Translations under genes and position numbers: made by a program
Shown here: piece by piece, positions 19,368 to 22,282 of the stretch
How positions within the stretch are numbered: the first letter of the stretch is position 1
Layout of the letters: each line of letters opens with the position of its first letter
Assembly: GCA_014803525.1 (NCBI GenBank)
Contig: JAAVBP010000004.1
Span: 121,369-185,368 of the forward strand
Length of the DNA: 64,000 bases
Direction of reading: 5' to 3'
Origin: a bacterium
GTDB taxonomy: Bacteria > Pseudomonadota > Alphaproteobacteria > Rs-D84
Notes under the pieces: model-generated
Told to the model about the DNA's origin: nothing
Seen by the model: the letters and a program-made list of their open reading frames with translations, nothing else
Databases searched by the model: none

Positions 19368-20249
19368 ATGATCTATTCACACAAAATAAAATTAACACTC
19401 CCAAATTTCAAGAAAATCCCAAATCACGCATTGACACATTACGTATCCGATGCATATCCGACCAAGATAAAAGCCAAAAAGGCACTGAGCGGATTTGCAC
19501 CAAAACCGATGATTAAGCGCAAGAAATTAAACACAAAAAATACACCTGACATGACAATTGAAATCGTTGATATTATGCGCCCGACACATAATCCAAAAAT
19601 GCCACGTGACAAGGTTCGCAACAATATCGACAAGGCGGCAATTGCGCGTTTCTTTAATAACGAGGCCCCAAAATCAAGGGAAGAGCAAATACAAAACTGG
19701 CGCATGACGGTTGTCGCGATGTTGGACAAATTGGACCAAATCAAAGCGGAATATGCCGCAGAAATCGCCGATGCAGAACGCGAACTGTTAATCGAATTTG
19801 TTGAATCTGTGCGCGGTCCAAAGGCAAAAGTTAATATGTCACGGCCGGCAAAAAAAGAATCTGATTCCTATGGTTCCTTGTTCCCATTTGATGACGAAGA
19901 ATACTATGGGGCCCCGGTACATTACGAAGACGAAGATGTATTTTATTTAGTCCCATTTGATTACGAGGCTGAGATTGCAGAATATAATTTATTGCATAAC
20001 GAAGCATCATCAAACAACCAAATGAACGACGACACATTTGTCGGTATCAATTCCATCGACGCAACAGCGGAAGATAAATTCGAACGCCTGTTCTTTGAAA
20101 ATGAAGTAAATGCACACAAGCTGGATATCTTTGAAAAGAAAATGCGTCGCACAAACCAAGAACGCAGCATGACCAAGATACATAAAGGCCAACTGCGCCG
20201 CAACATGCACAGATTGGTATTCGATGCATTTCGTTCACGCCAAAAATAA
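19368..20249 (+). CDS. Hypothetical acidic protein (no signal peptide)
   Basis: 293-aa ORF; D/E/Y-rich segment DDEEYYGAPVHYEDEDVFYLVPFDYEAEIAEY; followed by a strong terminator. Confidence 0.5.
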   Translation: MIYSHKIKLTLPNFKKIPNHALTHYVSDAYPTKIKAKKALSGFAPKPMIKRKKLNTKNTPDMTIEIVDIMRPTHNPKMPRDKVRNNIDKAAIARFFNNEAPKSREEQIQNWRMTVVAMLDKLDQIKAEYAAEIADAERELLIEFVESVRGPKAKVNMSRPAKKESDSYGSLFPFDDEEYYGAPVHYEDEDVFYLVPFDYEAEIAEYNLLHNEASSNNQMNDDTFVGINSIDATAEDKFERLFFENEVNAHKLDIFEKKMRRTNQERSMTKIHKGQLRRNMHRLVFDAFRSRQK

Positions 20250-20255
20250 AAGACG

Positions 20256-20274
20256 CGGCCCAATCTGGGCCGCT
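20256..20274. terminator. Bidirectional rho-independent terminator
   Basis: GCGGCCCAATCTGGGCCGC hairpin followed by TTCTTTTTTTT. Confidence 0.6.
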
Positions 20275-20281
20275 TCTTTTT

Positions 20282-20665
20282 TTACTTTTTTGACGCCAAC
20301 GCGTAACTGTTATCCAGCAACGAAAATATCTGGCGCGCATCCATTCGCCCGTCGAGTACGATTGTTATCCAGTGCCGCTTGTTCATATGCCATCCAGGAA
20401 AGATTTTCTTTTTATCAACAACAAAATCAATCATATCAGGCACGCATCGTATATCCAGAATTTCGATCATATTGTCACTGGCGCCGGGTTCTATTTTATT
20501 ATGACGCACGGTCAACAGCGCACCAAACCATTTGGCATTATCGCCACGGCGCCAAACAGCATTGTCCGGAAAACGTTCCCACAAGAATTCCAAATCGCGC
20601 CCATACTGGCTGCTGACATATTCTATCAGTTCGTGCGCCTGATGCGATTTAAATGTACCGGTCAT
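20282..20665 (-). CDS. MmcQ/YjbR-family protein
   Basis: About 127 aa from MTGTFKS; the pattern resembles the MmcQ/YjbR family. The longer ORF starting MGNHDNYC is rejected. Confidence 0.5.
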   Translation of the reverse strand: MTGTFKSHQAHELIEYVSSQYGRDLEFLWERFPDNAVWRRGDNAKWFGALLTVRHNKIEPGASDNMIEILDIRCVPDMIDFVVDKKKIFPGWHMNKRHWITIVLDGRMDARQIFSLLDNSYALASKK

Positions 20666-20761
20666 CACATTACACCAATCAACAAAAATACAACAACAAA
20701 CGCAATAATTATCGTGGTTGCCCACATAACGATTTTTTTGGACATTGTTTTATTCCCCTGG

Positions 20762-21379
20762 TTATTTCATTGGTGGAAAGCATTCGTTTGTATCTTTTTT
20801 ACAGCATGCGAATTCAGCATTGCCCAGATCTTTGAATAACTCGCCACTACAGCATCCATATTTGTTTGGTTTAGTTCCATCGCCACACAGACCCTTTTCA
20901 ATATTGGCGGCAATTTCCGCGGCGATTTCTTCTTCGGTCTTTTGCGGCTGTGCGGGCGCCAGAGCCACGGTTACCGCCATCGGCGGGAAACAATAATCAT
21001 CCTTGCAACAGAATTTTCCATCCGCGCCCATGTCGGCAAATTCTTCACCCGGACAACATCCGTTTGCATCCGGATTAGTGCATGATTCCGCAATCACCGG
21101 CGCATCGGTTGCGTCCGACGTATTCCCGGTGGCCGCGGCCGTACGCGTTCCGGCAATTGTACGCGCACCGCGACCACCGGCGCGCACACTGCAACTTTTA
21201 CGATATGTGGCGCGCAAATCCGCCAATAATGCCTTGTCCGCCTCTGCCAGATTTTCCGTCGCCGCCAGTTTATCAATATGCTCCTTGGTGGCGGCGCAGT
21301 CTGTACGCTCGGCCACATCGGCGGCAAAGGCGCCCCCAATAAACATCACACCAATGATTGCAAATATTATCTTTCGCAT
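20762..21379 (-). CDS. Secreted Cys-rich protein with a duplicated CC-containing module
   Basis: Signal peptide MRKIIFAIIGVMFIGGAFA; two copies of GCC[PS]GE.F.D[ML]G...[FA]CCK.D..CFPPM; Ala/Thr-rich linker. Confidence 0.55.
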   Translation of the reverse strand: MRKIIFAIIGVMFIGGAFAADVAERTDCAATKEHIDKLAATENLAEADKALLADLRATYRKSCSVRAGGRGARTIAGTRTAAATGNTSDATDAPVIAESCTNPDANGCCPGEEFADMGADGKFCCKDDYCFPPMAVTVALAPAQPQKTEEEIAAEIAANIEKGLCGDGTKPNKYGCCSGELFKDLGNAEFACCKKDTNECFPPMK

Positions 21380-21394
21380 GTGTGCCCCCTATTC

Positions 21395-22282
21395 TTATTC
21401 TTCTATTATTTTTTGTGCCTGGATTATAAAGTCAATCGCCGGATCGGCCAGTTTCTGCACCTTGTTCATAATCTCATTCGCAGTCTGCTTCATCTGAATA
21501 CGTCTGTATGTATCAGAAATCTGTTCGCGATCAGAGTCACTGAAATTATCGTCTTGCAACGCGCGTGCGATTTCCAATTCTTTCGCCGCCAGGTCAACAT
21601 ATTTCTGACGATTTTCCGGGCACCCGCGTTCAGAGATATTTGCATAAACCTTGGCATTGTTGATATGACATTCAGCATCGGTTTCACACGGATATGTATT
21701 CTGCATCAACAAATGCTCAATCTCTGTACATGTCCGAGTGTTTTCAGACGACGCATTGCTTTTCAATGCATCGATTATCGCAGATTCACGCATAATCATA
21801 TCGCTATACTTATCTGCATTTTCCGGGCAACCTTTTTCAACCAAACTTTTGTAAACTGCGATATTATTGCTGTGCATTGCAATTTCACTGCCGGTCATAA
21901 CAGGAACATTCAATCTTTCCGACAATAATTCCTCTATCACTTCGCATGTTTTTTTGTCGGCAGTGTCTTCGACTTTTGGTTGTGGTTTTGGTTCTTCCAT
22001 AAAATTATAATCGGCACAGTTTTTTGCATACGCGTCATTAAACTTTTCTAATCTTTCCAAATCATCCGTTCCCATATATGACTTCGAAGATATACTGATA
22101 ATCTGCTTTGACAGGGCCGCGCACTGCTTATCCATTGCCGGATCTGCGGCACCGCCGTTACCGTTAATCGACATACCGACCATGATGCCGCACCCAAACA
22201 AAACCGCCAATGCGACAATTCCAATTAGACGTTGGCGTGGTGTGTGCCGAACGCTAACCATCTGGGGTTGTTCTTTTTTCAT
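21395..22282 (-). CDS. Membrane-anchored protein with internal repeats ending E[KR]GCPEN
   Basis: N-terminal TM LIGIVALAVLFGCGIMVGM; two repeats of roughly 60 aa (C..IE.LL....C......N.AVY..L.EKGCPEN.DKY); no known domain. Confidence 0.55.
   Translation of the reverse strand: MKKEQPQMVSVRHTPRQRLIGIVALAVLFGCGIMVGMSINGNGGAADPAMDKQCAALSKQIISISSKSYMGTDDLERLEKFNDAYAKNCADYNFMEEPKPQPKVEDTADKKTCEVIEELLSERLNVPVMTGSEIAMHSNNIAVYKSLVEKGCPENADKYSDMIMRESAIIDALKSNASSENTRTCTEIEHLLMQNTYPCETDAECHINNAKVYANISERGCPENRQKYVDLAAKELEIARALQDDNFSDSDREQISDTYRRIQMKQTANEIMNKVQKLADPAIDFIIQAQKIIEE

Follow-up and report, generated by a model that had tools for sequence, protein, structure and literature searches.

Type VII ATP-binding cassette (ABC) transporters do mechanical work in the periplasm, and a partner protein is often encoded beside them (PMC12646458). 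In the Aat system of enteroaggregative Escherichia coli, a Lol-like ABC transporter and an outer-membrane channel export dispersin (PMC7943197). Here we describe a locus that can be compared with both, located in a window of 64,000 nucleotides (the whole stretch of DNA analysed) from an alphaproteobacterium of the GTDB order Rs-D84 (GenBank assembly GCA_014803525.1, contig JAAVBP010000004.1). Two of its genes, which we call B and C, are very probably neither orphans nor cargo of a genomic island, but the last two genes of an array that is fixed in Rs-D84, with extracytoplasmic products that share a domain. The order includes Candidatus Enterousia; its genomes measure about 0.7-1.6 Mb and lack the tricarboxylic acid cycle and respiratory chains, and its members, found widely in the guts of animals and humans, have been proposed to depend on other cells (PMC12306168). 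The array comprises six genes, given here in the direction of transcription:

25641-25961, minus strand: Y106, 106 residues, first gene of the operon, highly conserved, without a signal peptide
24294-25628, minus strand: X444, a 444-residue lipoprotein with lipobox cysteine C21
23023-24279, minus strand: LolCE-type permease with MacB_PCD and FtsX domains, the only such permease in the operon
22311-23030, minus strand: LolD-like ABC ATPase, best match TIGR02211
21395-22282, minus strand: C, 295 residues, a bitopic inner-membrane protein
20762-21379, minus strand: B, 205 residues, with a signal peptide, a cysteine-stapled helical hairpin, a linker and two six-cysteine modules

About 78 of the species loci reach far enough to show the whole array, and every one of them keeps the order Y106, X444, lolCE, lolD, C, B. 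The last three genes are closely packed, with 28 nt between lolD and C and 15 nt between C and B, each gap carrying a GGAGG-like ribosome-binding site, and no strong terminator was found in the operon before positions 20255-20273. B and C, together with lolCE-lolD and the secretin-like gene X444, probably form one transcription unit. What follows B differs from locus to locus (a YjbR-family gene, the gene that we call A, a pair encoding 309 and 971 residues, a gene of 153 residues, or TsaE-UvrB), and C and B have thus stayed tied to lolD while the flank beyond them was rearranged. The guanine-cytosine (GC) content of the two genes, 0.52 for B and 0.43 for C, spans the core level. Outgroup lineages, at 36-41% identity, have Y-like, X-like, LolCE and LolD genes in this order and encode neither C nor B, which indicates that Rs-D84 added these two genes to a unit already in place. 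Their universal retention in genomes as reduced as these points to strong selection on both genes. Searches of the literature for a secretin-LolCDE operon or for Rs-D84 envelope biology turned up no account of such a locus, and what is new here is the gene arrangement together with the two families, B and C, neither of which has been characterised. As a variant within the array, locus L017 (6562-7266) and about 20 others (among them L018, L029, L033 and L039) carry an extra 600-700 bp, with an open reading frame (ORF) of about 234 residues, between lolCE and lolD.

Neither protein is alone in the databases. The initial annotation had called the products of A, B and C orphans matching no known family. 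The second part of that description holds, as none of the three reached a curated cutoff in Pfam or NCBIfam, the best E-value being 0.056 or weaker. The first part does not, since we found 63 homologues of B, at least 574 of C and 4 of A. Those of B and C all come from uncultured gut Alphaproteobacteria, and relatives of C are encoded in 159 GTDB species genomes (one genome scanned per species), many of them Candidatus Enterousia. Profiles of B, of C and of the modules gave E >= 0.16 throughout against PDB sequences. The lone PHROG match of C was a baseplate protein (E 4.6e-4), a weak match along a helical stretch only. We also considered B, C and B2 (a small relative of B described below) as type IV pilins and rejected the idea: none has a prepilin motif, the cleavage site of B is AFA|A, and the consensus of C has no glutamate at +5 after any glycine.

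Protein C was organized as follows:

Residues 19-39: transmembrane anchor, preceded by a basic N-terminus
Residues 50-92: hairpin 1, with C54 and C89, optional among homologues
Residues 110-180: repeat 2, with C113 and C152
Residues 182-250: repeat 3, with C185 and C221
Residues 251-295: terminal helix, very conserved, containing PAIDFI

The N-terminal anchor and the two GCPEN repeats had been noticed beforehand, and both were borne out, the repeats aligning with a score of 119 where shuffled sequences averaged 23.9 (z = 20; 0 of 2000 shuffles). The unit had been given as about 60 residues ending in GCPEN; it is in fact about 70 residues long, with GCPEN internal, at the end of helix 2. Its motif reads TC-x2-IE ... 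H-x2-NI-x-IY ... GCPEN ... KY ... RE ... AL, with an invariant cysteine pair in each repeat, and the very conserved C-terminal segment reads ETVEVVETYKRL ... TDPAIDFI ... IIEE. We tried the first segment of C as a third GCPEN repeat; pairwise comparison placed it at chance (z about -0.2 to -0.3), and it matches the hairpin of B instead. In homologues of 344-346 residues (P0160, P0167, P0168 and P0170), a domain of about 90 residues between the anchor and the repeats replaces hairpin 1. The predicted structure of C is all helical with no beta domains; Foldseek returned nothing at E <= 0.001, and the fold search gave generic helical-bundle matches only, an MIT/TPR-like three-helix repeat being considered. 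The repeats are probably cysteine-stapled three-helix units in which the cysteine pair forms a disulfide, and C is predicted to display about 250 residues of helical repeats and terminal helix in the periplasm.

In protein B, three domains can be located on the DNA:

21182-21310, minus strand: hairpin domain, residues 24-66, with invariant R25, C28, R60 and C63
20978-21082, minus strand: six-cysteine module 1, residues 100-134, of PD-x-NGCCPGE type
20765-20887, minus strand: six-cysteine module 2, residues 165-205, of DGTKPNK-x-GCC type

Secretion of B, proposed at the outset, agrees with the Sec-type signal peptide (AFA|A) predicted for it, and the duplication of its module survives self-alignment (score 97, shuffled sequences averaging 28.6; z = 11.5, 0 of 2000 shuffles). 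The earlier count of eight or more cysteines per module has to be lowered to six, in the pattern C, CC, CC, C, out of 14 in the whole protein. Like those of C, the repeats of B are conserved among homologues, and the alignment shows six invariant cysteines, an invariant glutamate and a nearly invariant aspartate in the module; in module 2, all six cysteines and a proline, a glycine and a glutamate are invariant. The consensus is LC-x-DGT-x-PD-x2-GCC-x-GE-x-FKDLGD-x-GF-x-CCP-x2-GG-x-CFPP-x-K, with a cysteine spacing of C-x8-10-CC-x13-15-CC-x4-7-C followed by FPP. The linker is variable and often acidic, and the modules are always C-terminal, ending CFPPMK in B. A profile of the module found no match in the PDB (best E 2.4) and none in Pfam, and among these loci and the window the module is confined to the B position.

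The number of modules and their distribution over genes vary. In most relatives the PD-x-NGCCPGE-type module is a separate protein, B2, of about 80 residues with a hydrophobic N-terminus. A first automated pass over 78 loci found two genes in half of them (39), namely B2 and a B1 that comprises signal peptide, hairpin, linker and a DGTKPNK-type module. A single gene with a single module occurs in 24 loci; both modules are fused in one protein in 11, including the clade of the window; and the remaining 4 have no module by the pattern used. A distant B-like protein, P0062, is encoded at a contig edge.

The domain that B and C share is the hairpin. The B hairpin and the first hairpin of C are homologous (hhalign A1 versus A2: probability 77%, E 2e-5), and their pairwise comparison gave z = 5.2, with 1 of 2000 shuffles scoring as high. 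On our reading, no locus lacks the hairpin, which is found in B, in C or in the two together; of 12 doubtful loci, 8 were settled by eye, B carrying the hairpin, and 4 were assumed to be alike. C has the hairpin in those 11 loci that encode B as a protein of one module and about 91 residues. Since the distribution of the hairpin is complementary, it suggests that B and C act together.

The transporter genes upstream are identifiable by profile. The permease passes the TIGR02212 equivalog model over residues 6-418 (418.9 bits against a cutoff of 362.45), and the ATPase scores 241.6 bits with TIGR02211, below that model's cutoff of 307.75. For X444, which is 70-77% identical across the order, Pfam PF00263 gave no match at E <= 1 and PDB profile searches came back empty. 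An exhaustive phmmer search retrieved 120 representative relatives, the distant ones of which carry PF00263 and STN; these remote homologues were found at E-values of 1.7e-9 to 6e-4, with alignments lying mainly on the N-terminal domains. An AlphaFold2 (AF2) model built with the phmmer sequences as alignment reached a predicted local distance difference test (pLDDT) of 85 and a predicted template-modelling score (pTM) of 0.73. When this model was submitted to Foldseek, the top 31 PDB matches were all secretins (probability 0.72-1.00), BfpB, PilQ, InvG, GspD, pIV, EscC and XcpQ being among the proteins matched and BfpB the best (9u5s_A, E 2.8e-10). The global template-modelling scores were low (0.12-0.27), which is plausible for a monomer model compared with ring-derived chains. 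On its modelled fold, X444 is a secretin-family lipoprotein. Its adjacency upstream of lolCE-lolD is also kept in the outgroups L087 and L090. There, longer acidic proteins whose genes immediately precede the X-like ones end in the Y106 domain (L087 6540-7760; L090 6546-6989), and the outgroup Y-like genes are preceded by one for an HTH_3 protein of 330-350 residues. We considered Y106 as a periplasmic secretin partner of BfpG/TcpQ type and rejected it on the ground that Y106 and its outgroup homologues have no signal peptides.

B and C are probably core parts of the cell envelope rather than mobile toxins. The explanation that we prefer overall, with confidence somewhat short of even, combines the conserved array with a partner-client mechanism involving the Lol transporter and the secretin. 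In its specific form, which we hold only tentatively, C would be a periplasmic partner of LolCE-LolD, a type VII ABC transporter, and B would dock to the assembly of C and LolCE-LolD through the hairpin that it has in common with C. The knotted C-terminal modules of B would then either be kept at the envelope or be passed out through the secretin-like channel, and, whichever of the two holds, the task of B would be to help assemble the envelope or to make contact with a partner cell.

Several points weigh against this explanation. No homology ties C or B to any function, and C has no membrane-fusion-protein or EnvC-like domain; a search of C for Pfam families of membrane-fusion or adaptor type (MacA, HlyD) found no lipoyl, beta-barrel or alpha-hairpin family. 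lolCE-lolD looks like the housekeeping lipoprotein-release transporter, and such a Lol transporter needs no extra partner in model organisms. Synteny is high across the order, the divergent ftsQ-ftsA neighbours being conserved too, which leaves adjacency by itself a weak argument for a functional tie. The complementary distribution of the hairpin may stem from one evolutionary event within one clade. The disulfide knots of B are putative, and the absence of respiratory chains reported for the order (PMC12306168) puts disulfide formation in question. Finally, judging from gene content, X444 may be the secretin of a distinct system encoded elsewhere in the window:

57383-62543, minus strand: gene set resembling a type IVb pilus or type II secretion system (T2SS), ending at tRNA-Thr

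This set encodes a 141-residue lipoprotein, a PAP_PilO protein (R64-type, 424 residues), a secreted coiled-coil protein of 220 residues, a T2SSE ATPase and a T2SSF platform protein; within 57383-62543 we identified no secretin gene and no pilin genes.

The alternative that survives best gives C and B an independent function in the envelope, for instance as a periplasmic scaffold, a tether to peptidoglycan or the outer membrane, or a surface adhesin, and explains their co-transcription with the transporter by the frozen gene order of reduced genomes. The outgroups speak for it, as Y, X, LolCE and LolD occur there without C and B, and so do the exclusively generic helical-bundle matches of C. 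A frozen order accounts less well for the fact that C and B never leave lolD although the downstream flank was repeatedly rearranged, and for the tight intergenic gaps and missing internal terminator; we regard this alternative as possible but doubtful. The partner-client explanation could also be extended to all six genes, which would then constitute a composite trans-envelope machine of a kind not yet described: a Lol-type transporter, C as bitopic helical adaptor and X444 as BfpB-like mini-secretin, together moving the Sec-exported, disulfide-knotted B and B2 or displaying them at the surface of a bacterium obligately dependent on partners, with the hairpin as docking element. We consider so complete a machine unlikely.

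Two further alternatives appear improbable. In one, C, possibly with B, would be a lineage-specific replacement or helper of LolA/LolB kind working with LolCE-LolD. The position of C right after lolD, its membrane-anchored and periplasmic character, its highly conserved terminal helix and the need of the X444 lipoprotein, encoded in the same operon, to reach the outer membrane would all suit such a helper, but C is all helical with no LolA/LolB-like fold or sequence signal, and the six-cysteine modules of B have no obvious role in this scheme. In the other, the cysteines of the modules would be reduced and would bind metal or carry out thiol redox chemistry, making B a periplasmic metallochaperone or redox buffer. 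Six invariant cysteines with an invariant glutamate and a nearly invariant aspartate speak for such a protein, and in an anaerobe whose respiratory chains are reported missing the drive for Dsb-type oxidation is questionable. On the other hand, the cysteine pairs of C and of the B hairpin, located at helix ends, look like structural stapling, and no metal-binding family was matched. Adjacent cysteine pairs in a 40-residue module that ends the protein are more typical of knotted mini-proteins, which weakens this alternative further.

The initial annotation had read A, B and C as lineage-specific secreted factors, toxin-like or involved in host interaction, located beside a tRNA integration hotspot. 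The features concerned are the following:

19036-19122, minus strand: tRNA-Tyr (GTA), found by ARAGORN
19147-19221, minus strand: tRNA-Gly (TCC), found by ARAGORN
About 4225-19035: integrated element of 14.8 kb, of low GC, abutting the 3' end of tRNA-Tyr and containing none of A, B and C
7937-9715: C5 DNA methylase, element gene
10127-10702: replication-initiator-like protein, element gene
12686-16309: 1207-residue protein without database matches, element gene
16497-17096: resolvase, element gene
17485 to about 19030, plus strand: large serine recombinase, element gene ending at the tRNA

ARAGORN confirmed that the two tRNA genes adjoin the three ORFs. The pair lies downstream of B, YjbR or A in all 8 relatives checked, which share the order lolD-C-B-(YjbR)-(A)-tRNA-Gly-tRNA-Tyr with YjbR and A variable between B and the tRNAs; its position downstream of the operon is ancestral. 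The element has a GC content of 0.386, against 0.47-0.49 in the flanks, and no counterpart in the relatives, where homologues of window positions 1-4224 start within a few hundred bases of tRNA-Tyr (in L013, the homologue of 3190-4224 begins about 160 bp beyond it). An integration hotspot at the tRNAs is thus real, with an element abutting tRNA-Tyr, but the element is placed across the tRNA pair from B and C, which are not its cargo. They occupy the same site in all relatives, the recombinases and low-GC DNA lying beyond tRNA-Tyr, and A and YjbR vary in presence but have no flanking mobility genes. B and C themselves are ancestral core genes. Of the reading as lineage-specific secreted toxin-like factors, the restriction of B and C to the lineage and their extracytoplasmic location stand, and the toxin-like and mobile character does not, in view of the synteny, the fixed operon and the lack of toxin matches. 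That A, B and C were acquired horizontally as toxin-like or host-interaction factors is very improbable: tRNA-Tyr does serve as an insertion point abutted by a serine-recombinase element, B is secreted and cysteine-rich, and A and YjbR are variable between B and tRNA-Gly, but the element lies across the tRNAs, B and C hold the same place in about 78 species without it at a GC content spanning the core level, and the three proteins gave no toxin, PHROG or defence-type match of use.

The element itself shows some peculiarities. Taken from stop to stop, the large serine recombinase ORF (17485-19203, plus strand) continues through the antisense of both tRNA genes; probably either its final 60 or so codons are non-coding or the recombinase gene ends within the tRNA region. 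Copies of the 3' end of tRNA-Tyr (TGGTGGGAGTGG...) occur at 4681-4699, 5542-5560, 5737-5755 and 19033-19051, the first three near the far edge of the element, and duplicated segments of 50-56 nt (4674/5730 and 5300/5646) lie beside such copies. These copies and segments could be attachment-site remnants of repeated integrations.

The third ORF, A, lies between the operon and the tRNAs together with a gene that had been overlooked:

19368-20249, plus strand: A, ORF of 293 residues, cytoplasmic, with basic ends and an acidic, indel-rich middle
20255-20273: bidirectional terminator hairpin separating the convergent A and YjbR genes, with 7 G-C pairs among its 8
20282-20725, minus strand: YjbR/MmcQ-family gene, ORF of 147 residues, PF04237

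The ORF listing confirmed A, B and C at the positions first given, but the interval 19368-22282 contains four genes rather than three. The additional one belongs to the YjbR/MmcQ family (PF04237, 64 bits against a gathering cutoff of 30.1, E 2e-17); a product of 127 residues was called for it on the identical Logan contig L001, and downstream of B it is present in some relatives and absent in others. Nor do A, B and C constitute one cluster, as had been assumed, because A is convergent, separated from B by the YjbR gene and the bidirectional terminator, and restricted to few close relatives. The hairpin at 20255-20273 is the sole strong terminator-like site within 19000-26600 and likely marks the 3' end of the operon transcript. 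Described at first as acidic and internally repeated, A has a pI of 8.9 and a net charge of +4 (45 aspartate and glutamate residues against 49 lysine and arginine), no cysteine, and no repeat detectable by comparison of its halves (z = -0.5). Its acidity is confined to residues 161-250 (net -19), flanked by basic ends of +14 and +10. The 4 homologues of A are 35-42% identical; syntenic copies occur in three close relatives (L009, L010 and L013), their ends conserved and their middle rich in indels, and searches of Pfam, NCBIfam and PHROG with A returned nothing. A is a fast-evolving gene outside the operon, unrelated to B and C.

Two other genes of the window deserve mention. At 27261-29039 (plus strand), a 592-residue protein joins FtsA to a C-terminal ribulose-phosphate 3-epimerase (Pfam; identical gene in L001), a fusion that also occurs in the distant relatives L002, L004 and L005. 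At 41540-43804 (plus strand), there is a coupling protein of TraG/VirD4 type (PF02534, E 4.5e-50), apparently part of the core genome.

Two probably disulfide-rich envelope families, retained in every species beside a Lol transporter and a mini-secretin, are good candidates for machinery that defines the lineage's envelope or its contact with other cells. Should C prove to be a new kind of partner of a Lol-type transporter, or should B turn out to leave the cell by way of the secretin, more would be known of what type VII ABC systems and secretins can do; otherwise B and C would remain two new conserved families fit for entries of the domain-of-unknown-function (DUF) type.

Among described proteins and systems, several resemble parts of this locus. 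Granulins, hydrophobins and knottins are disulfide-rich mini-proteins with adjacent cysteine pairs and recall the six-cysteine module of about 40 residues, in which the invariant cysteines, two adjacent pairs among them, account for most of the conservation; its cysteine spacing and FPP nevertheless fit none of their frameworks. TcpF and CofJ are secreted in dependence on type IVb pili, and B, soluble, exported by Sec and encoded near a probable secretin of type IVb-pilus type, recalls them, although profile searches of PDB sequences revealed nothing similar to it. The comparison with the type IVb pilus itself concerns X444, a lipoprotein like the secretin BfpB (PDB 9u5s), its best model match at E 2.8e-10, and the window holds T2SSE, T2SSF and PilO(R64)-type genes without an adjacent secretin. 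However, X444 has only 444 residues and no Pfam Secretin match, and its gene is next to lolCE, some 32 kb away from the pilus-like set. The Aat system shares with this locus an operon in which a Lol-type ABC transporter is combined with a channel protein of the outer membrane and with a small protein, exported by Sec, as possible cargo; it differs in that the channel here is secretin-like and not TolC-like, that we saw no AatD-like acyltransferase, and that B has neither an acylation signal nor similarity to dispersin (PMC7943197). As for the type VII systems, C differs from their partners in having no membrane-fusion, LytM or LolA-like domain and no relative in sequence or fold, and its partnership is deduced from gene order. 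Yet the locus agrees with FtsEX-EnvC, MacB-MacA-TolC, LolCDE-LolA and YbbAP-TesA in combining a LolC/MacB-type permease with a separate ATPase (PMC12646458), and with such partner systems in having, in C, an adjacent gene for a membrane-anchored, mostly helical periplasmic protein.

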